In this document: positions 34,371 to 56,610 of the stretch, piece by piece
How the letters are laid out: each line of letters starts with the position of its first letter
Position numbering within the stretch: position 1 is the stretch's first letter
Source: an uncultured Legionellales bacterium
GTDB lineage: Bacteria > Pseudomonadota > Gammaproteobacteria > Eutrophobiales > Eutrophobiaceae
DNA: 63,883 nt
Assembly (NCBI GenBank): GCA_913045195.1
Contig: CAJWQR010000004.1
Coordinates: 1-63,883 of the forward strand
Direction: 5' to 3'
The notes under the pieces: model-generated
What the model saw: only the letters and a program-made list of their open reading frames with translations
Databases searched by the model: none
Told to the model about the DNA's origin: nothing
Program-made: the position numbers and the translations under genes

Positions 34371-36059
34371 ATGGCGTCCATTACTCACCTCACGAAACCG
34401 CAACGTTGGGATTCTCCTTATGATCCTGAAATGAGTGAAAAAGATGTTGCGTGGCTCATGGATCAACCCGAAATTATTACTCTTGATGCCGAAGCTTACC
34501 CCGAGCACACACCGCTAAAGGGTATTCTTAAAAATGACACGCGACTCCTACATTATAAAGTTGGTGACATCATCGTTCGAGAAGGTGATTATGGAAATTC
34601 AGCATTCTTAATTTTAAGCGGTAGAGTACGGATTTTTGCTGATAGTTACCCAAGCCTCCTATTAGGGCGTGATAAAAGTACAAAAAAGGGATTCCTTGAT
34701 ACGATAAGTCAAATCTGGACCAACTCGAAAATTCCCGAAGCCCGAGATACAAATAGCTACAAAGCACAGACAGTATGTGATGATCAAAAAATAAAAAATT
34801 ATAAATACAGCACTACAAACCGAATTTTTATCGAAGATATTTCTGAAGTTTTAAAAAAGTTCCATACCATTGAAAAAGGTAAGAGTGAATTATTTGGAGA
34901 ATTGGCTGCGCTTGGTAGAGTTCCTAGAACCGCAACCGTGTTTGCCGAAACTGAGACAACACTTTTAGAAATACGTTGGCAAGGGATCCGGGAAATTCGA
35001 CGATACAATGAAGCCTTTAGACACACAATTGATCAGTGTTATCGGGAAAATGCACTAACCATTCATCTACGCGAAACAGAACTTTTTTCTGAGCTTGACG
35101 AAAATACTTTAAGCAAAATTGCTAATGAAACATTATTTGAAACCTATGGAGGATTTGATTGGTATATTAGTTTTCAGCGCCTGCGCTCTTCTGGTCAATG
35201 GGGTGTCGAACACGAACCAGTGATTGCTCAACAGAATGATTATGCAGACGGCTTGTTGATGATCCGCGCCGGATTTGCACGTGTATCCATTGAATACGGA
35301 AGCGGTCAACGCACCCTTACTTATCTCAGCTCGGGTGATACTTTTGGTTATGAAGAACTTTTTGCTACCTGGGAAAGTGGTAGTCCAGTAAATCTTAAAG
35401 CTTCCTTGACTGCGCTCGGTTACGTGGATGTCCTGCGCGTACCGGGGCGAATCTTAGAGGAATACGTCTTTCCTAAAATTAAATCTTTAGCGTCTATAAA
35501 AACTGAGGCTAATACTAAAACTTTAGTAGATGATGCAATGCTAGAATGGGCGGTAGAAGAACGCTTTATTAACGCCACTAAATCCATGTTAATTGACCTT
35601 AATCGTTGCGTTCGTTGTGATGATTGTGTTCGTGCATGTGCCTCAACACATAATGGAAATCCTCGCTTTATTCGTCATGGTAAAACTTTTAATCATTGGA
35701 TGGTGGTAAATGCATGTATGCATTGTTCTGATCCAGTTTGCATGATTGGTTGTCCTACCGGAGGCATCTATCGTAACGAAATTGATGGAACTGTTGTTAT
35801 CAATGATGATGTTTGTATTGGTTGCTCAAACTGTGCCACAGCATGTCCCTACAACAATATTCAAATGGTTAAAATTAGGAGTGAATCGGGTGAAGAATTA
35901 TTCGATCGCGAAACAAACAAACCAATTCTCAAAGCAACAAAATGTGATCTCTGTTCGACAACTCCAGGCGGTCCTGCCTGTGTGCGCGCCTGCTCACACG
36001 ATGCTCTGAGTCGTGTTGATTTTCGTCGGGAAATGTTTGTGGATGATGATACATTATGA
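34371..36059 (+). CDS. cytoplasmic fusion protein: two cyclic-nucleotide-binding domains plus a DmsB/NrfC-type four-cluster [4Fe-4S] ferredoxin domain
   Basis: cNMP motifs are GDIIVREGDYGNSAFLILSGRVRIF...ELFGELAALGRVPRTATVFA, plus a second, more divergent barrel. Sixteen Cys fall in four motifs: CVRCDDCVRAC, CMHCSDPVCMIGCP, CIGCSNCATACP and CDLCSTTPGGPACVRAC (aa 413-541). There is no signal or Tat motif. Confidence 0.8.
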   Translation: MASITHLTKPQRWDSPYDPEMSEKDVAWLMDQPEIITLDAEAYPEHTPLKGILKNDTRLLHYKVGDIIVREGDYGNSAFLILSGRVRIFADSYPSLLLGRDKSTKKGFLDTISQIWTNSKIPEARDTNSYKAQTVCDDQKIKNYKYSTTNRIFIEDISEVLKKFHTIEKGKSELFGELAALGRVPRTATVFAETETTLLEIRWQGIREIRRYNEAFRHTIDQCYRENALTIHLRETELFSELDENTLSKIANETLFETYGGFDWYISFQRLRSSGQWGVEHEPVIAQQNDYADGLLMIRAGFARVSIEYGSGQRTLTYLSSGDTFGYEELFATWESGSPVNLKASLTALGYVDVLRVPGRILEEYVFPKIKSLASIKTEANTKTLVDDAMLEWAVEERFINATKSMLIDLNRCVRCDDCVRACASTHNGNPRFIRHGKTFNHWMVVNACMHCSDPVCMIGCPTGGIYRNEIDGTVVINDDVCIGCSNCATACPYNNIQMVKIRSESGEELFDRETNKPILKATKCDLCSTTPGGPACVRACSHDALSRVDFRREMFVDDDTL

Positions 36060-36874
36060 ATTCCATCCGTATGTATCACATTTTAATTTGGCTGATTGCT
36101 GGAATCATCTTTGGTTTATTAGCAATTAAAGATCAATCAATTCATGCGCGCCTTGGAAATCCAAGTGAACTGACTGGTTATTGCTTGCTCGTAACTATAG
36201 TCTTCTTGGCGTTTTTTAATATTCGTAAACGTTTATCAATGTTACCAATGATCGGTAAAGCTTCAACTTGGTTTATGCTGCATACCGTGGGTGGTTTTTT
36301 TGTTTTGGCTGTTTATTGGCTTCATACAAAGACAATTTGGCCTACAGGTATGTATGAAAAATCTCTGGCTATTTTATTTTACCTTACTGTGACTAGTGGG
36401 ATCATTGGTTACCTTATTCAGCAGATCTATCCAAAACTTTTGACACAAACTGGCGTTGAAGTCATTTTTGAACGTATCCCTCTCCGTATAAGCAAACTAC
36501 GTCAAAAAGCTGAAGAAACGATGCTTAAGTGTTGCAATAAAAGTGGAGTAGAAACACTTGGCAAACACTATCTGGATACATTGCAGTGGTTTTTCGCAGA
36601 ACCTAGATTTACATTTCAACACCTGATCGGTAGTCAACGCAGCCAGCAATGGATTCAGCATCAAGATAATGCAGTTCGCCGTTATCTTAATATAGATGAA
36701 CAAAAGTATCTTAATGAACTGAGTCAGCTCGCTTATCAAAAAAATATTATTGATATTCATTATACCTTGCAGGGTGCGATGAAATGCTGGCTACTTATAC
36801 ATATTCCACTAACCTCAGCATTAATGTTGCTGTCCTTTTGGCATTTTCTCGTTGTTAACGTGTACGCGTTATGA
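36056..36874 (+). CDS. 5-TM integral membrane protein with two H-x13-H pairs (putative diheme b-type cytochrome)
   Basis: 272 aa. TM3 is FMLHTVGGFFVLAVYWLHT (H76/H90) and TM5 is WLLIHIPLTSALMLLSFWHFLV (H249/H263). It has 4-nt ATGA overlaps with both neighbours. I recognise no family. Confidence 0.6.
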   Translation: MNSIRMYHILIWLIAGIIFGLLAIKDQSIHARLGNPSELTGYCLLVTIVFLAFFNIRKRLSMLPMIGKASTWFMLHTVGGFFVLAVYWLHTKTIWPTGMYEKSLAILFYLTVTSGIIGYLIQQIYPKLLTQTGVEVIFERIPLRISKLRQKAEETMLKCCNKSGVETLGKHYLDTLQWFFAEPRFTFQHLIGSQRSQQWIQHQDNAVRRYLNIDEQKYLNELSQLAYQKNIIDIHYTLQGAMKCWLLIHIPLTSALMLLSFWHFLVVNVYAL

Positions 36875-38796
36875 CAGAGAAAAATCATTCTGATTTTGAT
36901 CAAAGTGCTTACGAAAGACCAAGCAACAAATATATATGTGGACGAGCTGCTGAATGGGGGGTGCCTTGCAGAGCCGGTCCTAATTTCGATGGCACGTGTG
37001 GATGTGTCGCCGAGTGCGAACCTTTCTTTGTAAATGGGCGTTGGGAATGTCGCCGACCTCAGGTTGATGGAGGTCCTTGTAAAAACGGGCCGAGCCCTGA
37101 GGGTATTTGTGGTTGTACACAATCGCCATGCGTACCACGACGTACAATGCGTTGGTATCGTGGTAGATTATCAATCATCGCTGCAGGAATTATAGTTGCA
37201 TTGCTTGCTGCTTTTACTCATCTTTCCAACGAGAAAAATATTTTTTCAGATGGCTTTCGAATTGGCGCGTTAGATGCCGGAGAATTGACGGACGGACATA
37301 CCGGATTCTTTGAAACGTTAGAGTGTAAAACCTGCCATACAGCACACGAATCAAAACTAACAACATGGTTAATGGCTGTTATCACTGATAGTGATGTTGC
37401 TATAACTAAGGCCTGCGTTAACTGTCATTTATTCGAGGGGGAAGCAACATCGCCGCATAATGCAGTTTTTCCTGCCGATAAAAATATTATAAAAACCGAA
37501 TGCACTATATGCCATAACGAACATAAAGGAGTTAGTGCTGATATTTCTAGTTTAAGTGACGAACAATGTGCATCTTGTCATGAAAAAAAGTTTACTAATT
37601 TTAGTACAGGTCATTCTGATTTTTCGGAAGAATTCCCATATTTTAGACGCACAGCGATCAACTTTGATCACACAACACATCTTACGAAATACTTTCAAGA
37701 TGAGCGTATGAAAAAAGATAAGCGTAAACCCGAAGACGCTCCTGCCGAATGTATAACCTGTCACCAAAACGAATCCGAAGAACGTAACATTAAGCCTCTG
37801 GGTTATGAAAAAATCTGTGCTACTTGTCACACTAACCAAATTCTAAAACGTAAATTAGTGTTTCTACGTTTACCAGAATTCAACGAACCTGATATTGATC
37901 GTGAAGTCGCCATCGAGCTTTGTGGTCCGAATGAAGACGCAGAAGATGAGAACGCTGAAGATTATGAAAGTGTTTCGGTCGACGAGATGAGTGTTATTAC
38001 TTCTTATCTAATGGGTCTAACACCTGATGATCCAGAAAAATATAGTAAAGCTTTTCAAAACTTGATGTTAGGAATGATGGAAGACGGGATATCGCCATTA
38101 ATTGAAATGCTTGAAGAAAACGGGGTTAGACTTAATGCAAATCAATTATTAACTGGACTTAATCCCGAAGCAGCAAAACGCATGGCTTGTGCCTGGGCTA
38201 TGAACTTAGAATACGAGCTCCCTGCCAGTCCTGCTTTTGGTGGATGGTATGGAGATCTTCTTGAATTTATTTACCAACCAAACGGCCATGCCGACATTGT
38301 TATTAAAAGGTGGCTGGATTTTGCGGTTATCGCGGGAGGAGATAATGAAGAGATGATTGAGCGGGCAGAGGTAATGAGGGAATATTTATTGTCAAAAAAA
38401 GATGGGCCTGGAGCTTGCGTAAAATGTCACGCCATTACGCGTGATAAAAAAGAAGGGAAACTACGTATCGAATGGCAATACCATCAAAATGAAAACAGTA
38501 GTTATCAATCTTTTTCTCACCAACGCCATCTCCGTCTTGTCGATCCACAGGGTGTTAAGCTTTCTGATCCCAATCAAGGTTGCGCTAAGTGTCACAAACT
38601 TAATGCTGATGCTGCATATGATTCAAGCTTCGAAGATTATAATCCGATGACATATTCAAGTAACTTTATTTCAATAGAAAAGAAAACTTGTAGTCAATGT
38701 CATGCCAAAGGTCGAATTCGAGAAGATTGTCAGCTCTGTCATAACTACCATAAGGGTTTCGATTTTACTGATCGCGTAACCAGAAATAAAAATTAA
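36871..38796 (+). CDS. inner-membrane-anchored multiheme cytochrome c (10 CxxCH) with an N-terminal cytoplasmic Cys-rich domain
   Basis: 641 aa. The N-terminal 90 aa contain 10 Cys, followed by RRTMRWYRGR and a TM segment (LSIIAAGIIVALLAAF). After that come CKTCH, CVNCH, CTICH, CASCH, CITCH, CATCH, CVKCH, CAKCH, CSQCH and CQLCH. Confidence 0.85.
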   Translation: MTEKNHSDFDQSAYERPSNKYICGRAAEWGVPCRAGPNFDGTCGCVAECEPFFVNGRWECRRPQVDGGPCKNGPSPEGICGCTQSPCVPRRTMRWYRGRLSIIAAGIIVALLAAFTHLSNEKNIFSDGFRIGALDAGELTDGHTGFFETLECKTCHTAHESKLTTWLMAVITDSDVAITKACVNCHLFEGEATSPHNAVFPADKNIIKTECTICHNEHKGVSADISSLSDEQCASCHEKKFTNFSTGHSDFSEEFPYFRRTAINFDHTTHLTKYFQDERMKKDKRKPEDAPAECITCHQNESEERNIKPLGYEKICATCHTNQILKRKLVFLRLPEFNEPDIDREVAIELCGPNEDAEDENAEDYESVSVDEMSVITSYLMGLTPDDPEKYSKAFQNLMLGMMEDGISPLIEMLEENGVRLNANQLLTGLNPEAAKRMACAWAMNLEYELPASPAFGGWYGDLLEFIYQPNGHADIVIKRWLDFAVIAGGDNEEMIERAEVMREYLLSKKDGPGACVKCHAITRDKKEGKLRIEWQYHQNENSSYQSFSHQRHLRLVDPQGVKLSDPNQGCAKCHKLNADAAYDSSFEDYNPMTYSSNFISIEKKTCSQCHAKGRIREDCQLCHNYHKGFDFTDRVTRNKN

Positions 38797-38832
38797 ATAT
38801 CAATATTGTTTATGTAAGACCGGGAGTTAAAA

Positions 38833-40110
38833 ATGGAAATAGATATGCTAATTGATTTATCCGTTATCTCATTTTTAGGGATGTTAACGATCTATATCGG
38901 TAACTGGATCTTAATTAACAATCGACGATCCACTTGGACACGTCGTAATTATGAGATGAATCGACAGCGTTTACAGATCGAGATCGATCTCATTACCGAT
39001 CGTCGAAAAGTTGAGCAAAAAAAATCTGATCATTCCTGGAACGGTTTTCGTAAATTTGAGATCAGTGATAAAGTAAAGGAGGCAAAAGGTATTTTTTCCT
39101 TCTACCTGAAACCACATGATCGTAAACCCTTACCACCATTCGAGCCAGGCCAATTCCTTACTTTTAATCTTCATATTCCGGGCCAAAAAAAACCCGTCAT
39201 TCGATGTTATTCATTATCTGATAGCCCTAATCATCCTGATTACTATCGTGTGACAATTAAGCGTGAACCACCACATAATAAACCAAACATTTTGCCTGGA
39301 TTAGCCTCTAGCTTCTTTCATGATCAATTAAAAATTGGTGATATCGTCGATGTCAAAGCACCGTCAGGACACTTTTTCTTAGATATGTCTTCACACAAAC
39401 CTATTGTATTAATTGGTGGTGGAATTGGTTTAACGCCTGGTCTTAGTATGCTCAATTCCGTCATTGAATCTGGATCACTACGCGAAACACATTTCTTCTA
39501 CGGTGTTCGAAATGGTAAATATCATGCTTTCAAAAAACATTTACAAAAAACTACTCTGGAAAATGAAAACATCCATCTTCATGTCTGTTATTCTGAAGCA
39601 GGTGAAGATGACATAATAGATAAGGATTATCATTATGGTGAAAAAATTAGTGTTGATTTATTAAAACAGCATCTTAAATCCAGTAATTATGAATTCTATC
39701 TTTGCGGACCACCGTCGATGATGGGATCCCTTGTTGAGGAACTTGAAGCCTGGAATGTTCCAGTTAACAGTATTCATTTTGAAGCTTTCGGTCCGGCTAC
39801 GGTCAAAAAAACATCAACTGAAGATAATAAAAAAAGTGTTTCTGGTGCTGAAACTGTCAATGTTAAGTTTGCGCGTTCTAACAAAACAACATCATGGGAT
39901 GCAACTCAAGGATCTATTCTAGAACTTGCCGAAGCAAATGGCATTGTAAATATTATAGCTGGTTGTCGCGCTGGAAATTGTGATAGCTGTATTACGGCAA
40001 TCATGGACGGCGAGGTCAAATATCTTAATCCTCCAGGCTCACCGGCAGAAGATGGGTCCTGTCACACATGTATTTCAGTACCAAAATCAGACATAGTGAT
40101 CGATGCTTAG
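38833..40110 (+). CDS. membrane-anchored ferredoxin-NAD(P)H reductase-like flavoprotein with a C-terminal plant-type [2Fe-2S] domain
   Basis: It has an N-terminal TM segment followed by an RR-rich stretch. Motifs present are FAD RCYSLS, NAD(P)H GGGIGLTP, LCGPPSMM, and C-x4-C-x2-C (CRAGNCDSC) with a distal CHTC. Confidence 0.8.
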   Translation: MEIDMLIDLSVISFLGMLTIYIGNWILINNRRSTWTRRNYEMNRQRLQIEIDLITDRRKVEQKKSDHSWNGFRKFEISDKVKEAKGIFSFYLKPHDRKPLPPFEPGQFLTFNLHIPGQKKPVIRCYSLSDSPNHPDYYRVTIKREPPHNKPNILPGLASSFFHDQLKIGDIVDVKAPSGHFFLDMSSHKPIVLIGGGIGLTPGLSMLNSVIESGSLRETHFFYGVRNGKYHAFKKHLQKTTLENENIHLHVCYSEAGEDDIIDKDYHYGEKISVDLLKQHLKSSNYEFYLCGPPSMMGSLVEELEAWNVPVNSIHFEAFGPATVKKTSTEDNKKSVSGAETVNVKFARSNKTTSWDATQGSILELAEANGIVNIIAGCRAGNCDSCITAIMDGEVKYLNPPGSPAEDGSCHTCISVPKSDIVIDA

Positions 40111-40216
40111 TAATGAATAACAACTCTTGCTTGTCAACAAAACACAGATCTTAATGTAATTTTATACATCAGATATGATGAAATTATTTAGGCACTCACT
40201 AAAATAGGTAAAATAA

Positions 40217-41155
40217 TTAGCATTGTTTTAGGTTTTCCTCGTCTGGACCTGCGCAAGGAATCAGCTTACCAACCAAGCCTGAAAGATCCTTTTCCTTGAT
40301 CGCTTTCATCATTTCACGAGCATTAGTGTCACTTGGTGATTTAATTAGTGCTGCTGCCTCAGGTATAACTTTCAAGATTGCCGCAGCATCAGAAACACGT
40401 TTCAATTGTTCTTCTTTGTATTTTTCATTCTTAGCTTCGGATGCTGCTCTACTGGCGGAAACTAATTTTGCAGCCTGTCCTGCGATAAACAAATTAGCTA
40501 ATTGAGCCTTGGAACGTTTATCTTCCCAGTGACTCATTTTGCCTTGAGAAAACATAACAATCTCAAAGGAATGATTAATTGGGTGTTCCGCTTCTAACAT
40601 TTTACCGAATGCCTCTTCATTGATCTCTTGCCGCGCTAAACCATGACATTTCGCACAATTAACGGCAAGGTCATAATGCATTGAAGCCCAAATTAACCCG
40701 CCAGCAGTAGAATCATTAATCCGTTTGACTTTATGATCTTGAGCCTCTTGTTCTTTCTTAACTTTTTTTCCACCGTAATCAGAGTGAACTGATTCCCAGT
40801 CTGACGAGGCACCGTGACAATTTTCACAGGATGGACCATTCTTTACTTTGGGTTTGTCGTCAGCCTTTTTCTGTTTTGTTGAATAGTGGCAAATAATGCA
40901 ATCTTTGTTCCGTTTCATTCCCTTCTTAGTGCCCACAGCTTCGGCAATTTTCTTCGCATTTTTCTCTTTATGTGCCGTGCGATAGGATGTGAAGTGCTTG
41001 GTTTTCTCCCAAGATTTATATATATCCTCGTGACATTCCTCGCAACTTTCTGGGCCCTGATAATAAGGTTCAGCGATTACAATTGGTATGTGTACGAATG
41101 TTGCAACGAGTATAGTAAATAAAAATAATGTATGTCTGGTTATTGAAACAGGCAT
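40217..41155 (-). CDS. secreted tetraheme cytochrome c (c554-like N-terminal part, helical C-terminal part)
   Basis: It has a signal peptide. The four heme motifs are CEECH, CIICH, CENCH and CAKCH. Confidence 0.8.
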   Translation of the reverse strand: MPVSITRHTLFLFTILVATFVHIPIVIAEPYYQGPESCEECHEDIYKSWEKTKHFTSYRTAHKEKNAKKIAEAVGTKKGMKRNKDCIICHYSTKQKKADDKPKVKNGPSCENCHGASSDWESVHSDYGGKKVKKEQEAQDHKVKRINDSTAGGLIWASMHYDLAVNCAKCHGLARQEINEEAFGKMLEAEHPINHSFEIVMFSQGKMSHWEDKRSKAQLANLFIAGQAAKLVSASRAASEAKNEKYKEEQLKRVSDAAAILKVIPEAAALIKSPSDTNAREMMKAIKEKDLSGLVGKLIPCAGPDEENLKQC

Positions 41156-41175
41156 ACTTCCCTCCCCTTTTTTTT

Positions 41176-43548
41176 CTAAAAAATGAAATTTATTTTAGTC
41201 CGTATACCATATGCAGGATCACCTGTTGATTCCTGTTCAACAATAAAACCGCCGACTTCAAAAAAGACATGTTGTCCTAATGCATGTGAATAGCGTACTG
41301 CTCCACCATAACGATTGACTGTGCTTGAGGAATTATCAATTTTTCCGCCAACCTCAAAAATAAGATTACGACGAAGCGCTGGAGAGAAAAACATTTGATA
41401 GCCAAGTGAACCGCCAAAAGCATCACTAGCAAAGTTGTTGATTGGTGCTCCAGCTAAACCATTACTAGTAAATAACAGCCCTGTAATAGATAAAGGACCA
41501 CCGGCACTACGAGCTGCCGTTGCATAATCACCGAATGCTTTAAACGCATTCAAATACAAAATATTATCAGTCCTTTTTGGCGCGAAGGAAAAACTGGTAT
41601 AGAGTAAAGTTCCATCAGTTGCATGTGCATTCTCATTATCTGGTGTATATGAATGGAGAAAGCGAAATTGTGTATCAACGTCGTGTTCAAATAAAATAAA
41701 GGGGCGAAGCATACTAACCCCGAAATTTACCTGGTCACTATTAGTATCAGTGGTATCAATATAAGTTGCATCGATTTCAAACGTTGAATGAGCAACATCG
41801 ATTGCCGAAAAGATGCCGTATAATTCGGCACGGTCATCATCAACATTATTACTACGATCAATGTTACCAAAAGCAAAAAACCCACCAATTCGTGCAAAAT
41901 TAGTTCCGCTAAAAGGAATTGTGCTTCTAGTGACGGCAAATGAATCCATTGTATCGTTAATCAGCATACCACCTTGAACAATAACAGGTTGACGTCCAAA
42001 AGCGATTTCATAATCGAGTGGTAACCGACCATCCATATCAAGCTTCGGAAACATTTCAGATAATTCACCCTCAAAAAAGGCGGTAGTCAACCGAACGTTA
42101 TGATTGTTAATATATCCACTATCACCGGGTGAAAATGAATACTCTGACTTAGCCCCGTTTTCACGTGTCAACGGAGAGACGCCGACCAAAATCCGTTCGG
42201 TACCGCTGAGAGTTAAATTCAGAAAAAGGTCCATTGTCGTAACCCATGCTGAATCGACATCATTAACACCATCATCGGTAACCTCTAGTCCGGTATTAAG
42301 ATTACCAAATAATAATAAGCCTGGTGAAACAACCATTCCAGTAGGTAGTTCGAACTCATAGGCGTACGGACCTTGATTTACATAGTCCTGCCATAATTCG
42401 AAAAATGGTTCTGGGCGTTGCGGTAAATCTTGTTGTTCTTTGAGTGTAATCATCTCATCTGAGTAACGCGAACTGCTTTCGTTGAGTTTTGTATTCTCAT
42501 AAGTGGATTCTTCTTTTGTATTCTCTCCTTCTCTTTCCTCTGTGGATACCGCTTCCGCAGAATCTAAAGCGCTCTCCTCAGTGGTTTCTAATTCCACTAC
42601 CAGATATTGTTCTTCTTCTAACAGGATACTGTCTTTCTTCTGGGTTCTTATATCTGGCGTTTCCTCTTGGATTTTTGCCTCTAGTGTTTTCTCTTGTGCT
42701 ATTAACCACTGGTCTTCAATCCTCTGCATCGAGATAAGTTTTCTGACATCATCACTATAATTATCAGACTGATAGTTTTGTTTAAACTCAACATCGGCAT
42801 AATCTTCTCCGTGTATTTTGATCTTTGTGTCAGTAAGTGTAACTTTTATAAAACGAGGAGAAAGTATTCGTTTATGACGTTGTTTTTCCCATTTTCTTCG
42901 ACTTAACTTTTTTGGCGGGACAAAACTTTCTGCATAAGCTGCAAGATAAGCATCAATGTTTTGGGCAGACCAAACATTTGACCAATGATTTAATGCTTCT
43001 TCGATAGTTTCATTGACTGGAATAACTTCTTTTTCAATCGATACAACATTTTCTTTAATATCTCTGGAGATAGTATCTGGTGCTTTCTTTTGGGTTATTA
43101 AATTTTCAGTTTCTGTGTTATTAGTTGCGATTACTTTTTCTTTAACAATCAACCATTGCTCATCAACTTTCTGCATTGATAGTCGTTTCTTGACTTCATC
43201 AGTATAAGTATCTGATTGGTAATTTTGTGTAAACTCAACATCTGCATAATTTTCTTCATACTGATTTATCTTTAAATCAGATAAGACTACCTTGATATAA
43301 CTTGGTGTTAGCAGTCTTATCTTTCTCTCACTCTCCCATGCTTTGCGGCTTTTTCCTTTTGGAGGGGTAAATTGCTCAGCATAACTATCAAGGTAGAGAT
43401 CAACTTTTTGTGAAGACCAGGCTTTTGTCCAATTGTTTACTGAAGACTCAATGTCGGCATATGCAAATTGTATACAAGTAAAAAAAACAAGGGTGCTAAA
43501 AAATATTGGGGTACTTATTTTTTTTATTTGATGATTGATTAAAAACAT
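41176..43548 (-). CDS. secreted 790-aa protein: two tandem NTF2/SnoaL-like domains, an acidic linker, and a C-terminal outer-membrane beta-barrel-like domain
   Basis: It has a signal peptide (FFSTLVFFTCIQFAYA). Repeats aa 38-139 and 187-288 are about 55% identical by hand alignment. The C-terminal ~415 aa show alternating amphipathic strands and end ...YGIRTKINFIF (terminal Phe, as in OMPs). There is no CxxCH. Confidence 0.6.
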   Translation of the reverse strand: MFLINHQIKKISTPIFFSTLVFFTCIQFAYADIESSVNNWTKAWSSQKVDLYLDSYAEQFTPPKGKSRKAWESERKIRLLTPSYIKVVLSDLKINQYEENYADVEFTQNYQSDTYTDEVKKRLSMQKVDEQWLIVKEKVIATNNTETENLITQKKAPDTISRDIKENVVSIEKEVIPVNETIEEALNHWSNVWSAQNIDAYLAAYAESFVPPKKLSRRKWEKQRHKRILSPRFIKVTLTDTKIKIHGEDYADVEFKQNYQSDNYSDDVRKLISMQRIEDQWLIAQEKTLEAKIQEETPDIRTQKKDSILLEEEQYLVVELETTEESALDSAEAVSTEEREGENTKEESTYENTKLNESSSRYSDEMITLKEQQDLPQRPEPFFELWQDYVNQGPYAYEFELPTGMVVSPGLLLFGNLNTGLEVTDDGVNDVDSAWVTTMDLFLNLTLSGTERILVGVSPLTRENGAKSEYSFSPGDSGYINNHNVRLTTAFFEGELSEMFPKLDMDGRLPLDYEIAFGRQPVIVQGGMLINDTMDSFAVTRSTIPFSGTNFARIGGFFAFGNIDRSNNVDDDRAELYGIFSAIDVAHSTFEIDATYIDTTDTNSDQVNFGVSMLRPFILFEHDVDTQFRFLHSYTPDNENAHATDGTLLYTSFSFAPKRTDNILYLNAFKAFGDYATAARSAGGPLSITGLLFTSNGLAGAPINNFASDAFGGSLGYQMFFSPALRRNLIFEVGGKIDNSSSTVNRYGGAVRYSHALGQHVFFEVGGFIVEQESTGDPAYGIRTKINFIF

Positions 43549-43552
43549 TTTT

Positions 43553-45424
43553 TTACCTTTTAATCTTAACTGTTTCCGTGGTTTCCCATAAATTTATACT
43601 TAGATCGACTACCCGTTTCGCCAACTCACGTAAAGAGAAGTTATAATCAAGCCCCACTTGGGAATTGACGTGTATAAAGTAGCCCGGCAACTGTTGGGCA
43701 ATCAACTTCATACTTATCGTATAGGTCTCATCCGATTTTAATAAATCTGGATCAATGGAATATTTTGCCCATCGATATCCACCTGGCTCGATACTATTTT
43801 TCTTTGTGCGAACCATGTTTGGACGCATATGTATTGCGGTCGGATTTGGTGGTGGGCGAATAAATGGCCGTGTCGTCTGTGAGAAATTTATAAATCGTAT
43901 TTGAGTACGTTCACCACCCCAAAAAGTCCCAACCATAAAATGACTCATCAAATTAAATAATTGTTTGTCGTATTTTAATTCGCCGTTGCGAACATATCGG
44001 GAGTATCTTTCGCGGAGGTCACCGTTTGGGTCGCGATCACCAGACTTAAAAACAACATTACCTTGACTATCCTTTACCGTGATCTGGAAAAATACCATTC
44101 GTTCGTGAATAAAACCCGATGGCGCATTATGACCCAACACGGCATTTCTAAGTTTAATGCGGAACTTTAAGCCGTCCTTTATATTCGAATCGTCGATAAC
44201 TACATCTTCGACCTTATAACCAGCTTTCATTACTGCATCTCTTTGACCCTTTGCCCAATTAAGTAACTCGAACTGTTCATCTAAGATTTCACGAGCCTCG
44301 TAACGCAAGTCCTGATCCTGCCAAAATTCCGGAAATTTATTATCATCGGTAACATTGTCCTCGAACTCATCTGTACCCCAGCCTTTTTTGTGTTCAAATT
44401 CCATCCATTGCTCATAAGTTGCTAACTCCACTGCATCTGGATTATGTGGAAAGATACCGGGATGCAGTACCGAAAAATCCGGACCTGCAAAATAATGATT
44501 CGACAAACGCCGATGTTTGGTCTCAACCTTACCTACTATCGCGGCTGGACCTTTATCAAACCCCTTATTTTCACCCGGGACCTTACCCATATGGCAATCT
44601 TGGCAAGTTACGCCATCGGCTGCTGACTTCGAGGTTCTATACTCATCGAAAGTTTCCTCATTATGAAAGCCAGTTGGTAATCTGGAAGCATGACAATTAC
44701 CACAAAATCTTGAGGCTCTTAGAAAAGGATATTCCTCAACTCGTTTATGAATTGCTCGTCCTTTCTTGCCAGGTTCAGTTACCAAAGACAGTCTGGAGTC
44801 TTGTTCAGCCTCTGCTTGAATTTCGTTATTGGTTGGCCCGAAAATAGGACTAAAAATATCGCCTTCAGTAATCATTGCACGGGCACTTCGCTTACCATAT
44901 TTTTTATCAAACCGATGGCAAACAACGCAAGTTACACCTTCAACTACTGGCCCCAAAAAATCCTCCCCTTCACGAGCAAATTGTGCTCGTTTCAGATTGG
45001 AAATTTGCATAAGTCCAAGTACAGCAGCAATTGGTGCATGGCAACGGGAACAAGTATCAGCCGAGGTACCGTTAGACTTGCCTAAGACTGAATTTTCTAC
45101 CGAAACAAAAAAGGGACTTAGATTGCCATAGGCATGACTTGATGCTGACCATTGACGAAATTGAACTGGATGACAAACCTTACATTCAAAGGCTGAAGGA
45201 AATCGCTTATTTTGAAACAAATCCTCGTGCGCCTTATCGACAACCTCTTCTGCCTCGACAACCTCTTCTGCCTCGACAACCTCTTCTGCCTCGACAACCT
45301 CTTCTGCCTCGACAACCTCTTCTGCCTCGACCGAACCGGCAACTAATATCGCCAACGACAGAAGCATTGCAGCAACAAAATCAGATTCACATATTTTTAG
45401 CCTTTTAAAACAAAGACATAACAC
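43553..45424 (-). CDS. secreted pentaheme cytochrome c with an N-terminal (EEVVEA)n repeat
   Basis: GTG start preceded by GGGAGGG, with a signal-like N-terminus. The five heme motifs are CKVCH, CSRCH, CVVCH, CGNCH and CQDCH. The large C-terminal half has no heme motifs. Confidence 0.8.
   Translation of the reverse strand: MLCLCFKRLKICESDFVAAMLLSLAILVAGSVEAEEVVEAEEVVEAEEVVEAEEVVEAEEVVDKAHEDLFQNKRFPSAFECKVCHPVQFRQWSASSHAYGNLSPFFVSVENSVLGKSNGTSADTCSRCHAPIAAVLGLMQISNLKRAQFAREGEDFLGPVVEGVTCVVCHRFDKKYGKRSARAMITEGDIFSPIFGPTNNEIQAEAEQDSRLSLVTEPGKKGRAIHKRVEEYPFLRASRFCGNCHASRLPTGFHNEETFDEYRTSKSAADGVTCQDCHMGKVPGENKGFDKGPAAIVGKVETKHRRLSNHYFAGPDFSVLHPGIFPHNPDAVELATYEQWMEFEHKKGWGTDEFEDNVTDDNKFPEFWQDQDLRYEAREILDEQFELLNWAKGQRDAVMKAGYKVEDVVIDDSNIKDGLKFRIKLRNAVLGHNAPSGFIHERMVFFQITVKDSQGNVVFKSGDRDPNGDLRERYSRYVRNGELKYDKQLFNLMSHFMVGTFWGGERTQIRFINFSQTTRPFIRPPPNPTAIHMRPNMVRTKKNSIEPGGYRWAKYSIDPDLLKSDETYTISMKLIAQQLPGYFIHVNSQVGLDYNFSLRELAKRVVDLSINLWETTETVKIKR
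45238..45331. repeat. perfect 18-bp tandem repeat, 5.2 copies (CGACAACCTCTTCTGCCT on the + strand)
   Basis: Copies are identical at 45238, 45256, 45274, 45292 and 45310, plus a partial sixth. The repeat is in frame and encodes EEVVEA x5 just after the signal peptide of the pentaheme cytochrome. Confidence 0.95.
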
Positions 45425-45535: not shown

Positions 45536-45659
45536 GTTAACAGAAGATAATATGTGCGATTTCTTGTACAAAACAAAAAATATGGGGTAAATAACAACCA
45601 TTATTATTTAAATTTCTTCAGGTATATCAGGTATATAGAAAATTAAGGAAATGCGGGTT

Positions 45660-46760
45660 TTAGTCTTCAATGGCAGTTAATTTATTCAATATTACACGCT
45701 TAACAGGCCAAATATTATTAGCAAGTTTTAGGATTATTTTCCTTAAAAATCTTGCTTTAGATGTTTCATTTGTATACAAACAAACAATTCCATTCGTTGC
45801 CAAATATAATGGATATGATACTCGTCTGTGTATGGATTGATAATTTGTTAATACACTAGGGTAACCAATATCTATTTTCTTCTCTAAAGCATTTTTTATT
45901 TCTTTTGCTAGTGCATTTTGTCCTTTAAGACCAAGATTAAATCCATGGGCCGTTACAGGATGCATCCCAACAGCAGCATCTCCAATTAATGCAAAACGTG
46001 TTGACACAAATCTATTCGCATATACTGCAATAAGTGGATAAGCGAAACGTTTGCTTATTAGTTTCATATTGCCTAGACGAAATTTAAATTGTGCTGAGAC
46101 TTCTTTATTAAATTTATTCTCGGCAATATTTAATATTTTGTTGTGTTGATTTGAAGGAGCCGTTATGACAATAGAAGATTGATTTTCTGTCAGCGGTAAA
46201 ACTGCTAGTGTTCTTCCGTAATAAAAACACTCATAAGCAATATCAAAATGAGGTTCTTCATGTTGCATTCGACATACGACACAAATTTGTCCAAAATCTA
46301 GCGTTCTGGCAGATATTCCTTCGCCACGACGAGTCTCAGAAAAACGACTATCGGCCGCAATAATTAAACGTGTTTCGATTATTTTACCATTTGATAAGGT
46401 AATAGTAGCTGCTTCTGGATTTCTATTTATTGATGTAACGGTAGTATCGGTAATTAATTCAATGTTAGAGAAATTTTTAATTTCATCATAATACGCCTTC
46501 CGTATTAAGTGATTAGAAATTAAATAACCCAATTCATCGCAACCTGCCTTGCGATGATCAAAATGTAAGAAATATGGTGAATAACCATTAAGAACTCTTG
46601 CTTCTTTTATAGGGGATTTAGAGATATTTGGAATTCTTCCCCACACACCAGCCTCTTTTAATAATTTAACTGAGAAATGTGTTAATGCAATATCTCGACC
46701 ATCATACTCAGGGTCTGCTAAGATATTTTCATTTAATTTCTCCACTATCGAAATATTCAA
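45660..46760 (-). CDS. FAD-dependent monooxygenase, UbiH/UbiF/VisC (COQ6) family; the N-terminus is unresolved
   Basis: It contains the family motifs ...LIGDAAVGMHPVTAHGFNLG.... The track start is a TTG. The 27 in-frame codons upstream (to 46841) encode DITIIGAGPAGLSFARSLA, the expected Rossmann GxGxxG, but contain no ATG, GTG or TTG. Confidence 0.8.
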   Translation of the reverse strand: MNISIVEKLNENILADPEYDGRDIALTHFSVKLLKEAGVWGRIPNISKSPIKEARVLNGYSPYFLHFDHRKAGCDELGYLISNHLIRKAYYDEIKNFSNIELITDTTVTSINRNPEAATITLSNGKIIETRLIIAADSRFSETRRGEGISARTLDFGQICVVCRMQHEEPHFDIAYECFYYGRTLAVLPLTENQSSIVITAPSNQHNKILNIAENKFNKEVSAQFKFRLGNMKLISKRFAYPLIAVYANRFVSTRFALIGDAAVGMHPVTAHGFNLGLKGQNALAKEIKNALEKKIDIGYPSVLTNYQSIHRRVSYPLYLATNGIVCLYTNETSKARFLRKIILKLANNIWPVKRVILNKLTAIED

Positions 46761-46859
46761 ATCAGTGTTTGCAAGAGAGCGTGCAAAACTGAGACCAGCT
46801 GGCCCGGCACCAATAATTGTTATATCATTTTTAATAACTTTTCACTTCCTGGAAATTAT

Positions 46860-47222
46860 CTATTCGTTTTCTCTAAAATGCTCATCATTAGGACAAAATG
46901 AATAGTCTTCCTCAAAACTATCATCATCTTCTAACATTTCTAGGCATTTTTCTTTTGATTCGCATTCTTTGCAATTTACTAAGTGCTCTTCAATTTCATC
47001 TACCTTAAATTTTTCAAGATATTTATTAATATCAATATTTCTTTTCTGCAACATGGCATAAAAAGGTAGTTTTTCTAATTTTATCTTCAAATTATTTCGA
47101 AACTTTTTTGTAACTTTAATATGCCCTTTTATCGCAATAATTACTGTTACACTAATGATTAGAAGAATTAATATAAGAAATAAAATAAAAGCTGCTGAAA
47201 TAAACACAAAGTTACGCTCCAA
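46860..47222 (-). CDS. small membrane-anchored protein with a C-terminal Cys motif (hypothetical)
   Basis: 120 aa with a TTG start and one N-terminal TM segment. The C-terminal region reads ..VNCKECESKEKCLEML..FCP. It may be DUF6455-like, but that is unverified. Confidence 0.45.
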   Translation of the reverse strand: MERNFVFISAAFILFLILILLIISVTVIIAIKGHIKVTKKFRNNLKIKLEKLPFYAMLQKRNIDINKYLEKFKVDEIEEHLVNCKECESKEKCLEMLEDDDSFEEDYSFCPNDEHFRENE

Positions 47223-47264
47223 ATAGTAGATTTTTTATGATTACATAGTTCTATTTTGCTGAAT

Positions 47265-47278
47265 TTGATTTTGATCAA
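47265..47278. promoter_or_regulatory. FNR box D, TTGATTTTGATCAA (perfect)
   Basis: The consensus match is perfect. It lies only 43 nt upstream of the TTG start at 47222, between the cox-assembly genes and the small Cys protein/UbiH-like pair. Confidence 0.6.
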
Positions 47279-47319
47279 AAAATAAAATTATATTTTTATA
47301 GCTCAATGTATAATTCCCT

Positions 47320-47934
47320 TTATCCAAGCCAATTCTTTGTGGCCATAATCAATCTCTCTAAGTCTTTCAGTATATTTTCACTGCTTATTCCATGTGAATA
47401 ATGCATCATAAGATTTCCTTTCGGATCAATTAAATAAATTCCGTTATTATTTATTTCTTCAAAGTTGGCAAAATTAGAAACAAAATCACTAAAGAAAGGC
47501 TGTGCTTCTGTAATAATAACCATCTTTGGATACTTTGAAATTGTCTTCAAATATTCATCTGTAATAGTTGTTCCGCTCAAAACTAATATTCTTTGCAAAT
47601 AACGCATATCCTCGCCTAGTGCGAGTCGAATTTGATTAAAATCATATATATCTTGCTGACAAGTTTTACTGCAATTACCTTCATTCAATTTAACAAGAGT
47701 CCACAAACCATCAAGATTTAACGCTGGAAATTCACGCTCATCTATGGTCTTAAGATTTTCAAATCTTACAGGATGTTGCGGGTTGATGAGTTCGCCTTGA
47801 TTTACTTGTTGTTTTGGTAAAAAATCAGGATGATTATAAAAAAACCATGATGCGGTCATTGGGAATGCGCATATTACAATTAAAATCCATAATTCAAATC
47901 TGAATTTATTGTTTTTTGTCTGATATTCGTTCAT
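47320..47934 (-). CDS. membrane-anchored thioredoxin-fold/SCO-like protein of the cox assembly cluster (hypothetical)
   Basis: It has an N-terminal TM segment and a CSKTC (C-x3-C) motif in a context resembling SCO copper chaperones. It overlaps the SURF1 gene by 4 nt. Confidence 0.45.
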   Translation of the reverse strand: MNEYQTKNNKFRFELWILIVICAFPMTASWFFYNHPDFLPKQQVNQGELINPQHPVRFENLKTIDEREFPALNLDGLWTLVKLNEGNCSKTCQQDIYDFNQIRLALGEDMRYLQRILVLSGTTITDEYLKTISKYPKMVIITEAQPFFSDFVSNFANFEEINNNGIYLIDPKGNLMMHYSHGISSENILKDLERLIMATKNWLG

Positions 47935-48674
47935 TGATTTATCCTTGTTGTATTATTTTTTTGAACAATAGATAACCCTAAATAAACTAAAATAGTAATA
48001 ACGGCAAAGACAAACCACTGTATTGCATAACCTATATGCATAAAATATTTTGCATTAAACGCTGGCCATTGACGGATAAAACTATTCTGATCTTCGGGTG
48101 ATTGCTGTATAAAAAATGGTAAAACCTTAGCATCATGTTGTGCAGTATAATAATCTATATCGAGGAATGGCCAGCGCTCACCCCAATCACGCTCAATATC
48201 AGTAGAAGGCAATTTTATAAATGGTGGGGGCGTAGAAAAAACGATGGTGCCATTAACTTTTATTTTTCCTTTGGGTGTATAAACAGCTGGTAATTTTTCT
48301 CCATTTCCATCCATTTTAACCCAACCTCTGTTTACAAAAACCTGTAAATTCTCTGTGCCATCAATCAATAATGGGGTTAGCACTTCATAGCCGATATCAT
48401 TTTGATATTTCTTTCCATCAAGATAAATATTATTTTCGTATAGATATTTTCCACTAACAATAGCTTTGCGAAAACGATATTTAGGTTTTGAATCTTCTAC
48501 TTCATTAAGAATTAATGGCGGTAAATTACTGGAGTATTTTATCTCTTCTTCAATTTTTTGTTTCTCGCTTGCACGATATAACTGCCAGAAGCCTAATTTA
48601 ACAAACACACCTACGAGTATTAACATAACTATAATTAGCGTCACATTTATTCGAAAATAATAACGATCAAACAT
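47931..48674 (-). CDS. SURF1-family cytochrome oxidase assembly protein
   Basis: 247 aa with two terminal TM helices. The N-terminal LGFWQLYRASEK signature is present, and the gene sits in the cox operon. Confidence 0.8.
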   Translation of the reverse strand: MFDRYYFRINVTLIIVMLILVGVFVKLGFWQLYRASEKQKIEEEIKYSSNLPPLILNEVEDSKPKYRFRKAIVSGKYLYENNIYLDGKKYQNDIGYEVLTPLLIDGTENLQVFVNRGWVKMDGNGEKLPAVYTPKGKIKVNGTIVFSTPPPFIKLPSTDIERDWGERWPFLDIDYYTAQHDAKVLPFFIQQSPEDQNSFIRQWPAFNAKYFMHIGYAIQWFVFAVITILVYLGLSIVQKNNTTRINQ

Positions 48675-48747
48675 TAAAATATATCTAATCCAATATATAC
48701 AAGCGTTACTAGAAAAATATACTTAAAGAGATGTTTGCCTGCATTGG

Positions 48748-48957
48748 CTAGGAGGGCGAAATGATGCCAAAGAAAGCTCCTCCAATTAGTAGAATAAACA
48801 AAATTAGTGCAAGTGTTACTCGTTTTGATAATGCTTGCACGACTCTTGTTTTATCCTTATCGCCATGGTCTTTTGTTAAATAGTACATTGCTTCCACAAG
48901 GGCAAATACAACCAACAATAATATTATGAGCGCAGGTAGCTTAAAAGTTAGTGTCAT
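48748..48957 (-). CDS. small two-TM membrane protein of the cox cluster (DUF2909-like)
   Basis: 69 aa with two hydrophobic helices. It lies between coxC and SURF1, as in other gammaproteobacterial aa3 clusters. Confidence 0.4.
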   Translation of the reverse strand: MTLTFKLPALIILLLVVFALVEAMYYLTKDHGDKDKTRVVQALSKRVTLALILFILLIGGAFFGIISPS

Positions 48958-49019
48958 TTTTGTGCTCCCATTTTTTTTACAAAGTAATTTTTGAATTCGT
49001 TAGTCAATCAAAGATTGAG

Positions 49020-49886
49020 TTAAAGCATATAAACTAGAAAAAATAAAGCCAACCAAACAACATCAACAAAGTGCCAATACCAAGCGACCGCTTCAAAACC
49101 AAAATGGCTCTTCGGACTAAAATGCCCTTTAATGCTTCGCCCAAGAATTGAAGCCAGCATGATTGATCCAGTAATAACATGTAATCCATGGAAACCCGTT
49201 AATATGTAAAATGTTGAACCATAAACACCCGAACGTAATGTTAAATTTAAATGTTCATAGGCATCCTGATATTCCCAAGCCTGCATTACAACAAAAATTA
49301 GACCCAATATTATCGTTGTTATTAAACCTCCGACTAACAATTTACGATTCTCAGTCTTTAAACCCCAATGTGCCCAGGTAATTGTTGCGCCACTCGTCAA
49401 GAGAATGAATGTATTTAGTGCGGGAATGCCCCATGCCTCCATGGGTGAGAATCCCTCGCCCACAGCGCCAGGTCCAGCAGTCGGCCATTGCGCATCAAAT
49501 TGATTATAAAGAAAGTCATGGGTAGCTGAGAGGTAACCGGTACCACCTAACCACTCCACTGACACATTACGGATATACCACAAAGAAGCAAAAAAGCTTA
49601 TGAAAAAAAAGACTTCAGAAGCGATAAACCAGATCATTCCTTGACGAAAAGCACTATCTACTTTCTTGCTATGAAGCCCCAAGTTGTTCTCTTCAATGAC
49701 ATCCCCAAACCATTCAAATAAAAGATAGGTAAAAAGTAAAATACCAGCTAATAAAAATATACCGCCAAAAAAGAGATCATTAATAATTAATGCAAGCCCA
49801 AGAAGCGTACTAAAAACTGAAGTAGCAGTAATAAATGGCCAGGGGCTTGGATTTGGTATGTAATAATCCTCTTGTTTTGCAGTCAT
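49020..49886 (-). CDS. coxC: cytochrome c oxidase subunit III
   Basis: 288 aa with 7 TM helices. It ends in the COX3-like sequence ...GFHGLHVITGS...WYWHFVDVVWL. Confidence 0.9.
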   Translation of the reverse strand: MTAKQEDYYIPNPSPWPFITATSVFSTLLGLALIINDLFFGGIFLLAGILLFTYLLFEWFGDVIEENNLGLHSKKVDSAFRQGMIWFIASEVFFFISFFASLWYIRNVSVEWLGGTGYLSATHDFLYNQFDAQWPTAGPGAVGEGFSPMEAWGIPALNTFILLTSGATITWAHWGLKTENRKLLVGGLITTIILGLIFVVMQAWEYQDAYEHLNLTLRSGVYGSTFYILTGFHGLHVITGSIMLASILGRSIKGHFSPKSHFGFEAVAWYWHFVDVVWLALFFLVYML

Positions 49887-49901
49887 ATCTTTTACCTCTT
49901 G

Positions 49902-50555
49902 TTAAGATGTCTCTTTGTCTAAGCTATAAAACAATGGTATTTCTTTAAAATAAATGTCTGTTAAATAGTTCTTTGTTTTCTTAATTTGTCTTTCATTAGA
50001 ATATTTCTTCATCGAGTCAGTGTCAGCATTCATAACTGTATAAGAAAGAGTCAATGAATTAATTTTATCGGGTAACGATGTTGAAACAACAAAACGTATT
50101 AACATCTCTTTTGATTCTTGTGCTTCGAGAAGTTGTTTCTGAAAACAAAAACATTCTACTTTATTAAAATAAGTATTTGCGTCCCATGGCAGGAGATTTG
50201 GAATTGCTTGCGCAATTATACTCTCATCAGCAAAATTCTTTGCCAAAAAGATTACATTATTAGGCTCCCCTGTTTTTACTTTTATTTCTTTTATTGAGGG
50301 AGTAAATTTCCAAGGTAAACCACGAGTGATAGTAGAATCAAACTTAACTATGACATAGCGACTTTGTTTGCTTGTATCCTCAACTGCTGCTTTCTCTGTC
50401 GTCAAGTTACCACCCAACGTTTGAATTCCGGCAAGATTGCAGAACAATGTATATAATGGTGCCATTGCAAAGCCAAAGCCGAACATAACAATAACGATTC
50501 CTGTCAATACTATAACAGTACGATTATTATTTTTTACATTTGGCTCTCGTTTCAT
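49902..50555 (-). CDS. ctaG: cytochrome c oxidase assembly protein CtaG/Cox11
   Basis: It has one TM helix and the copper-binding motif ECFCFQKQ. Confidence 0.85.
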   Translation of the reverse strand: MKREPNVKNNNRTVIVLTGIVIVMFGFGFAMAPLYTLFCNLAGIQTLGGNLTTEKAAVEDTSKQSRYVIVKFDSTITRGLPWKFTPSIKEIKVKTGEPNNVIFLAKNFADESIIAQAIPNLLPWDANTYFNKVECFCFQKQLLEAQESKEMLIRFVVSTSLPDKINSLTLSYTVMNADTDSMKKYSNERQIKKTKNYLTDIYFKEIPLFYSLDKETS

Positions 50556-50557
50556 CT

Positions 50558-52150: not shown

Positions 52151-52188
52151 GATTTATAATGTCCTCCAAAACAGATATAAAATAATAA

Positions 52189-53316: not shown

Positions 53317-53378
53317 AAATAGTTCTCTCTTTTTTTTATAAATAAAAAAATTTAAAGTTAATAATTATGATAAAAAAA

Positions 53379-54119: not shown

Positions 54120-54174
54120 TAAAAGATGTCTTGAAAAATCCTTTATAGATTAAGGTAGCAAACGTTTTAAAAAT

Positions 54175-54188
54175 TTGATCTAAATCAC
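54175..54188. promoter_or_regulatory. FNR box E1, TTGATCTAAATCAC (1 mismatch), ompW side
   Basis: It is in the 290-nt divergent region. TATAAA on the minus strand lies about 30 nt toward ompW. Confidence 0.5.
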
Positions 54189-54206
54189 TTTAGATATATT
54201 TTAGAT

Positions 54207-54220
54207 TTGATCTAGATCAG
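54207..54220. promoter_or_regulatory. FNR box E2, TTGATCTAGATCAG (1 mismatch)
   Basis: This is the middle box of three in the ompW / phyH-hemN divergent region. It contains the palindrome TGATCTAGATCA. Confidence 0.5.
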
Positions 54221-54278
54221 TTTCGTGGAAAACATTTTCTTTTTTATACTCTCGGATAGAGATAAATTTCAACTGCTA

Positions 54279-55198: not shown

Positions 55199-55220
55199 TT
55201 GCTTGGGGCATATCCATCTT

Positions 55221-56603: not shown

Positions 56604-56610
56604 TATCAAA

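Follow-up and report, generated by a model that had tools for sequence, protein, structure and literature searches.

Why should a decaheme cytochrome destined for the periplasm begin with ten cysteines that appear to stay in the cytoplasm? Multiheme cytochromes of extracellular electron transfer are regarded as purely periplasmic or extracellular and as fed by the quinone pool. The question is raised by ptdG, which encodes a membrane-anchored decaheme c-type cytochrome in a 63,883-nucleotide stretch of contig CAJWQR010000004.1 (the window, taken at its full length) from an uncultured Legionellales bacterium, and specifically by the cysteine-rich N-terminal region, or head, that precedes the single transmembrane (TM) helix of the protein. 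We report that the head is a small Cys4-repeat domain family without a described relative, giving a new multiheme cytochrome architecture, and that it probably binds two metal centres and ties PtdG to cytoplasmic iron–sulfur (Fe–S) and flavin partners. The PtdG family and its gene cluster have already been named; the head itself is undescribed.

The layout given in the original prediction was confirmed by translation of ptdG (Table 1): ten cysteines (amino acids 23, 33, 43, 45, 49, 60, 70, 80, 82 and 87) precede the one hydrophobic segment of the protein (amino acids ~100–118), and ten CxxCH sites in the same polypeptide (at amino acids 152, 182, 211, 233, 294, 316, 516, 571, 607 and 620; range 152–624) are all C-terminal of it, with every heme Cys and His invariant in a 23-sequence alignment. 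Positions 36937–37131 are exactly the span from codon C23 to codon C87. At the Cys frequency of the 16 other open reading frames (ORFs) of the window (0.96%), the probability of ten or more Cys in 65 amino acids is ~7 × 10−10, and, as the pattern is also conserved across phyla, it is not a product of chance. No second copy of the head was found within the window.

What is conserved is larger than the duplicated 14-residue pattern first noticed, PC-x2-GP-x3-G-x-CGC. Both copies of that pattern are present (PCRAGPNFDGTCGC, amino acids 32–45, positions 36964–37005, inside unit 1; and PCKNGPSPEGICGC, amino acids 69–82, positions 37075–37116, inside unit 2), but its CGC ending is not conserved, and the conserved entity is instead a four-Cys unit of ~37 amino acids, [YWF]-x-C-[GR]-R-x4-G-x-P-C-x2-G-P-x3-G-x-C-x5/6-C-x-P, that occurs twice in tandem. 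The two units (amino acids 17–53 and 54–91) align with each other by profile–profile comparison with a probability of 97.9% and an E value of 4.8 × 10−13 (hhalign). Across 240 two-unit heads, C23, C33, C49, C60, C70, C80 and C87 are invariant and C43 is replaced only once, by Gly (239/240); a Y-E-R-P motif ahead of unit 1 is similarly constrained (Y14 in 239, R16 in 239 and P17 in 233 of the 240), and Y14, R16, P17, G24, G36, P37, G41, P51, R62, G67, G73, P74, G78, P89, R94 and R97 are nearly invariant in heads. Conservation among homologues thus holds for eight core Cys and not for the other two: other lineages have Gly or Ala at position 45, where Cys is fixed only in the window's own cluster at ≥90% identity, and position 82 is Cys in 63 of the 240 two-unit heads (26%), position 81 being Cys in 32%.

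To see how widely the head occurs, and with which partners, we combined a word-indexed search with the full protein (116 relatives) and an exhaustive phmmer search with amino acids 1–125, which returned 593 cluster representatives (at 50% identity) with E ≤ 1 × 10−3, 443 of them with E ≤ 1 × 10−10. Heme counts and protein context were taken from 150 matches listed of the 593, and all full-length proteins among these are multiheme cytochromes of the PtdG family. Exactly ten CxxCH sites are present in 102 of the 147 newly returned proteins among the matches listed, the other full-length ones having 6–14, and head-bearing entries with few or zero hemes are short fragments or frameshifted metagenomic calls. 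Marine metatranscriptome contigs span the ptdF/ptdG junction and the head (36771–37021 and 36907–37057). Public gene calls often truncate PtdG by starting at an internal Met, so that the remainder resembles a protein with an ordinary Sec signal peptide, and others detach the head as a small ORF (for example, the 69-amino-acid ORF at 9777–9986 of locus L077, in frame with the cytochrome); because of such calls, the head is under-represented in protein databases. In one Alphaproteobacterial PtdG (locus L037, 9959–10813), the head is spread over two frames (9959–10180 and 10184–10813), either as a frameshift pseudogene or through an assembly error.

Natural variants bear on how the head is built. 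One-unit heads with exactly four Cys (C-x9-C-x9-C-x9-C) occur in homologues P0034 and P0038 and in loci L038–L040, L042 and L046, and truly headless PtdG proteins, with a short basic N-terminal tail before the TM helix, in P0103–P0109 and in loci L072, L074, L075 and L076. As the one-unit variants keep exactly four Cys, each unit is most likely a self-contained four-ligand site (C23/C33/C43/C49 and C60/C70/C80/C87). Headless ptdG still lies behind ptdE–ptdF, with ptdC retained in L076, and no compensating domains or indels were found in the PtdE, PtdF and PtdC proteins of the headless clades. As ptdE–ptdF(–ptdC) clusters with a one-unit or headless PtdG are otherwise complete, a complex of this kind can do without the head. 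The idea that the head is co-inherited with ptdC was rejected on the evidence of L076, and apparently headless P0102, P0110, P0114, P0099 and P0100 proved to be truncated gene calls.

The original prediction did not recognise the motif, and neither did any database that we searched. Pfam and NCBIfam searches with the whole protein gave nothing over amino acids 1–120, a Pfam search with the head alone gave zero matches at E ≤ 10, and comparison of the head profile with Protein Data Bank (PDB) sequences gave only marginal matches of Cys-rich composition (LEU3, E = 0.008, 19 bits); profile hidden Markov model (HMM) matches to the extracellular Cys-rich domains SRCR and ephrin were also weak (E = 0.18–1.1). 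An AlphaFold2 (AF2) model of the head alone (amino acids 1–120, from a 40-sequence alignment) had a mean predicted local distance difference test score (pLDDT) of 79.8, with blocks of 77–93 over amino acids 20–92, and almost no regular secondary structure beyond a hairpin at amino acids 51–60 and the TM helix at amino acids 93–119. Such model confidence with so little regular structure is as expected of a metal-organised mini-domain. Foldseek found no match to this model in the PDB (best E value 2.6, to LIM2; best template-modelling score 0.31, to CHORD, for which scores ranged from 0.24 to 0.31); the full-length AF2 model was of low confidence (pLDDT 62.9), and Foldseek searches with it were uninformative. 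The head has neither the CxxC nor the Pfam matches (zero at E ≤ 10) of a ferredoxin-type [4Fe–4S] protein, and, with a minimum spacing of 5 between core Cys and no recognisable fold, it is not a zinc ribbon, treble clef or knuckle. Two further candidates were rejected: twin CX9C (CHCH) proteins, which share the C-x9-C spacing, because of the Gly/Pro-rich loops of the head, the lack of a helical hairpin in the AF2 model and the predicted cytoplasmic topology; and fungal Zn2Cys6 domains, because the CX2CX6CX5-12CX2CX6-8C pattern is absent and LEU3 is matched only marginally. Given eight invariant Cys in a predicted cytoplasmic location and a loop-rich, confidently modelled mini-domain, metal ligation is the most plausible use of these residues.

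CxxCH hemes are attached in the periplasm (Ccm/Sec biogenesis). With a single TM helix and a heme domain that must be periplasmic, the head lies on the opposite side from the hemes. The original prediction had placed it in the cytoplasm on account of the basic stretch RRTMRWYRGR, a placement upheld by the family as a whole: across 200 members, the 15 residues leading into the TM helix bear a net charge of +4.5, compared with −0.2 C-terminal of it, and 98.5% of the members have more Lys and Arg on the N side. From the positive-inside rule and periplasmic heme attachment, we infer that the head is cytoplasmic, and, as only ~10 basic residues separate it from the TM helix, it would lie at the inner membrane face. 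A Tat-signal reading of the Arg pair was rejected, as the twin Arg at 90–91 is not conserved.

The predicted cytoplasmic position makes the neighbouring genes relevant. On the basis of matching gene content and of orthologues in metagenome-assembled genomes (MAGs) from the habitats of the preprint that described the cluster, the gene is ptdG of ptdABCDEFG, all seven genes of which lie in the window (34371–45424). PtdG orthologues at 53–58% identity were found in marine Alphaproteobacteria MAGs, some from oxygen-deficient waters (for example, ETNP3_MAG_51, 53%). The preprint named ptdABCDEFG, called PtdG a 'periplasmic deca-heme protein' and left the function of the cluster untested (Elbon et al., bioRxiv 10.1101/2023.11.21.568154); its text contains none of the words 'cysteine', 'N-terminal' and 'zinc' and does not mention the PtdG head, and our literature searches found no later work on the ptd cluster. 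Across 74 genome loci (from Alphaproteobacteria, Nitrospinota, Verrucomicrobiota, Planctomycetota and Acidobacteriota), ptdE–ptdF–ptdG are adjacent and in the same order in nearly every locus long enough, ptdF is always directly upstream of ptdG, and ptdC is nearby in most; the ptd neighbours seen in the window recur in most of the 74 loci. The cytoplasmic Fe–S and flavoprotein partners that the original prediction had supposed are thus encoded next door, by ptdE and ptdC.

PtdE contains 16 Cys in four ferredoxin-type groups (413/416/419/423, 449/452/457/461, 482/485/488/492 and 525/528/537/541) that resemble those of the four-cluster proteins DmsB, NrfC and HybA; the preprint gives PtdE two 4Fe–4S clusters (bioRxiv 10.1101/2023.11.21.568154). 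Its fusion to two or three cyclic nucleotide monophosphate (cNMP)-binding domains is unusual in an electron carrier. In PtdF, H76 and H90 (TM helix 3) and H249 and H263 (the last TM helix) are invariant in 71 orthologues and form two H-x13-H pairs, which, being at matching depth in a five-TM, N-in topology, fit two stacked b-hemes. Its Pfam matches, to the two-heme cytochrome clan, are all below threshold (DUF4405, E ~1 × 10−3; Ferric_reduct, E = 0.69; and Ni_hydr_CYTB), and it matched no PDB sequence; since no Pfam family reaches threshold, PtdF may represent a branch of the di-heme b/ferric-reductase-like proteins that has yet to be described. PtdF also has a conserved cytoplasmic insertion of ~120 amino acids (amino acids 125–245) between TM helices 4 and 5.

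Together, these observations suggest how the head might be deployed. It would be an autonomously folding cytoplasmic domain of two tandem ~37-amino-acid units, each wrapping one metal centre. PtdF, the putative di-heme b protein encoded by a gene translationally coupled to ptdG, is the most likely packing partner of the PtdG TM helix, and such packing would bring the head beside the cytoplasmic insertion of PtdF and the docking site of PtdE. There, the head could clamp PtdG to the cytoplasmic module (PtdE and PtdF, and possibly PtdC) of a quinone-independent wire, in which electrons would pass from NAD(P)H through flavin adenine dinucleotide (FAD) and 2Fe–2S in PtdC and four [4Fe–4S] clusters in PtdE to two hemes b in PtdF, and from there through the ten hemes c of PtdG to PtdD and PtdA/B. 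Our leading reading, which we advance tentatively, is that the head is an accessory structural or regulatory membrane-proximal 'foot' rather than an indispensable electron relay. We infer both its contact with PtdF and PtdE and its accessory role; the latter is favoured over an obligatory relay because the chain is complete without the head and because its partners are unchanged in one-unit and headless clades.

Five explanations were weighed, which we rank from the accessory foot, through an Fe–S relay and a sensor, to a disulfide-bonded periplasmic head and finally a mis-annotated start. The last would place the true start at M93 (37147–37149; MRWYRGR-LSIIAAG..., Sec-like) and leave 92 codons untranslated, as in P0265, a 549-amino-acid member of the window's ≥90% identity cluster that is called from M93, and as hinted by several other database entries that start inside or after the head. 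This is scarcely credible: M93 is not conserved, being Leu in most homologues; across phyla, the protein sequence of these 92 codons is strongly constrained, with invariant Cys, Gly and Pro; the 'separate' 69-amino-acid ORF of L077 is in frame with the cytochrome; and the ATG at 36871, the first possible ptdG start because of an in-frame stop at 36856–36858, overlaps the ptdF stop as ATGA. This overlap and the conservation of the head down to ~25% overall identity bear out its treatment as part of the protein. We also consider it very unlikely that the head is exported and that its Cys form four or five disulfides in the periplasm, even though C-x9-C spacing is superficially like that of twin-CX9C disulfide proteins and the weak HMM matches are to SRCR and ephrin. 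A single TM helix and a periplasmic heme domain with Ccm-type heme attachment put the N-terminus across the membrane from the hemes; the whole family shows a strong positive-inside bias; there is no N-terminal signal peptide ahead of the head; and the AF2 model contains no helical hairpin.

A redox relay is the more serious competitor to the accessory foot, possible if in our judgement doubtful. Each unit would hold a redox-active Fe–S cluster or a rubredoxin-like Fe(Cys)4 site, and electrons would travel through the head between PtdE/PtdC and the PtdF heme b on the cytoplasmic side; consistent with this are the four invariant Cys per unit, the Gly/Pro-rich wrap-around loops, the C-x-P ending, the conserved aromatics Y14 and W58, the lack of CxxC zinc knuckles, the Fe–S or flavin electron-carrying nature of every other cytoplasmic subunit of the cluster, and a location within a few residues of the membrane surface, near the expected inner heme of PtdF. 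Yet the head has no sequence or fold match to ferredoxin, HiPIP or any other Fe–S family, PtdE alone supplies a four-cluster wire, and a unit number of 2, 1 or 0 with unchanged partners is hard to square with fixed electron-transfer distances. With similar reserve, PtdG might be seen as a hybrid iron–sulfur/c-type cytochrome, with two cytoplasmic redox centres and ten periplasmic hemes in one polypeptide; if so, PtdG and the hemes b of PtdF would connect NAD(P)H or donors at the ferredoxin level in the cytoplasm with the outside of the cell, independently of quinones, and the Cys4 unit would be a new Fe–S binding fold. Less probable again is a sensor or switch, in which the Cys4 sites (Zn-thiolate or labile Fe–S) would sense redox state, O2/NO or metal and gate the Ptd conduit, perhaps jointly with the cNMP-binding domains of PtdE. 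Regulatory-type (CRP/FNR-like) cNMP-binding domains are indeed already fused to an electron carrier in the cluster, the head is dispensable in some clades and variable in copy number, and its carriers inhabit oxic–anoxic interfaces such as marine oxygen-deficient zones, but invariance of all eight Cys is equally expected of a purely structural site, and the head matches no known sensor family. Several observations also weigh against the accessory foot. The headless clades are the most divergent as well (about 25–36% identity over alignable parts), and they may do without a head because their complex has been remodelled, not because the head is dispensable; the few PtdF residues that head-bearing clades alone conserve (W95, R149, E153, T167 and L211) are, given this overall divergence, not separable from it; and the Cys spacing of 9/9/5–6 with no CxxC knuckle is atypical of structural Zn(Cys)4 sites and no less suited to a larger Fe–S cofactor, which keeps the Fe–S reading alive.

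Table 1 Features of ptdG and of the other ptd genes, in window positions.
Feature	Position	Strand	Description	Basis
ptdG	36871..38796	+	641-amino-acid membrane-anchored decaheme c-type cytochrome	ORF, motifs, Pfam multiheme domains, 116 homologues
Head, amino acids 1–99	36871..37167	+	Cys-rich, predicted cytoplasmic	Conservation across homologues, AF2 head-only model
Y-E-R-P motif, amino acids 14–17	36910..36921	+	Ahead of unit 1	Conservation in 240 heads
Cys4 unit 1, amino acids 19–52	36925..37026	+	C23, C33, C43, C49	Conservation, hhalign to unit 2
Cys4 unit 2, amino acids 56–90	37036..37140	+	C60, C70, C80, C87	Conservation, hhalign to unit 1
RRTMRWYRGR, amino acids 90–99	37138..37167	+	Basic juxtamembrane stretch	Sequence, family-wide positive-inside bias
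Single TM helix, amino acids ~100–118	37168..37224	+	Predicted N-in/C-out signal anchor	Hydropathy, AF2 helix at amino acids 93–119
Decaheme domain	37225..38793	+	Periplasmic	Ten CxxCH, Pfam, invariant heme Cys/His
ptdE	34371..36059	+	Cytoplasmic; cNMP-binding domains and C-terminal four-group ferredoxin-type Cys region	Pfam, NCBIfam, synteny
ptdF	36056..36874	+	272 amino acids, five TM helices, putative transmembrane di-heme b	Invariant His, synteny
ptdC	38833..40110	+	N-terminally TM-anchored, FNR-like FAD/NAD(P)-binding, C-terminal plant-type 2Fe–2S	Pfam, NCBIfam, synteny
ptdD	40217..41155	-	Periplasmic tetraheme c554-like cytochrome	Four CxxCH, Pfam, synteny
ptdB	41176..43548	-	Putative outer-membrane porin, two N-terminal NTF2-like (Cds6_C) repeats	Pfam, synteny
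ptdA	43553..45424	-	Pentaheme cytochrome	Five CxxCH, Pfam, synteny

The rest of the cluster varies in its outer parts. The Cds6_C/NTF2-like repeats of PtdB, whose porin role was assigned by the preprint (bioRxiv 10.1101/2023.11.21.568154), lie at amino acids ~33–290, and in most other loci only the C-terminal ~430 amino acids (the barrel) were matched; PtdA has a tandem acidic (EEVVEA)n repeat after a predicted signal peptide. In Verrucomicrobiota loci (L051–L071), ptdA, ptdB and ptdD are missing near ptdE–ptdF–ptdG, and ptdC lies upstream of ptdE, and homologues related to these loci (P0051, P0053, P0059, P0060 and P0068) are much longer (730–1100 amino acids, some with TPR), which suggests a different periplasmic or outer partner. 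The flanks (window 1–33000 and 45600–63883) are ordinary chromosomal DNA, with gltBD, pilQ, mrcA, priA, argS, ubiM, an aa3-type cytochrome oxidase and a TonB-dependent receptor (GC content 36%); many marine and seawater metagenomes contain near-identical DNA, and a search of the window for ribosomal RNA and other Rfam families was negative.

A conserved Cys8 domain of predicted cytoplasmic location, beside a putative di-heme b protein, a four-cluster Fe–S protein and an NAD(P)H flavoprotein, would point to a design different from that generally accepted, in which a conduit is assembled, and possibly controlled, from the cytoplasmic side, bypassing quinones. The ptd cluster occurs widely among marine oxygen-deficient-zone Alphaproteobacteria, Nitrospinota, Verrucomicrobiota and Planctomycetota, where it is transcribed in situ. 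The head, at ~95 amino acids, offers a small expressible handle on the wiring of the ptd complex that makes the proposals above directly testable, and it defines a new domain family for annotation.

Compared with the preprint's cluster, the window has the same complement: penta-, tetra- and decaheme cytochromes, a porin, an FAD/NAD(P) oxidoreductase, a cNMP/4Fe–4S protein and a putatively ferric-reductase-like membrane protein are found in both, and the head, its duplication and its variants are the new information here, as the preprint describes PtdG only as periplasmic. Within reach of our literature searches, nothing contradicted the view that multiheme cytochromes do not normally carry cytoplasmic Cys-rich heads of this sort. 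One of the closest analogues is RseC, which has an N-terminal cytoplasmic CX5CX2CX5C motif and is associated with the Rsx/Rnf-type SoxR-reducing system (PMC11729352). RseC resembles the PtdG head in being a small cytoplasmic Cys4 module on TM helices beside a membrane electron-transfer complex, and differs from it in having another Cys spacing and no detectable homology, and in being neither duplicated nor fused to a cytochrome. The head also has the short, loop-rich, Cys4-type character of LIM, CHORD, Zn2Cys6 and zinc-ribbon domains (its top non-significant matches being LIM2, CHORD and LEU3), but, unlike these, it has no CxxC knuckles and no His ligands, with Foldseek E values of at least 2.6 and template-modelling scores of at most 0.31.

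At the level of the complex, the closest comparisons are with DsrMKJOP, Hmc, Tmc and Qrc, which combine a periplasmic multiheme cytochrome c, a membrane di-heme b subunit and a cytoplasmic Fe–S protein. PtdG, PtdF and PtdE would make up a similar set, with a one-TM c-type cytochrome, membrane hemes b and a cytoplasmic Fe–S subunit. In DsrMKJOP-type complexes, a protein of its own, with CCG domains (DsrK/HdrD-like), provides the Cys-rich part in the cytoplasm, and the membrane subunit is NarI- or NrfD-like, whereas the Ptd membrane subunit would be ferric-reductase-like; moreover, the cytochrome subunits of DsrMKJOP, Hmc, Tmc and Qrc are not known to carry a cytoplasmic cofactor domain such as the one proposed for PtdG. 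NOX/FRD enzymes and MsrQ–Fre deliver electrons from an FNR-like NAD(P)H/FAD module to two bis-His hemes b stacked across the membrane. The H-x13-H pairs on two TM helices of PtdF and the match of PtdC to PF08030 recall this arrangement, although PtdF has five rather than six TM helices and reaches no Pfam threshold. To this NOX/FRD-like scheme, Ptd adds an Fe–S protein and a decaheme cytochrome with a Cys8 head.

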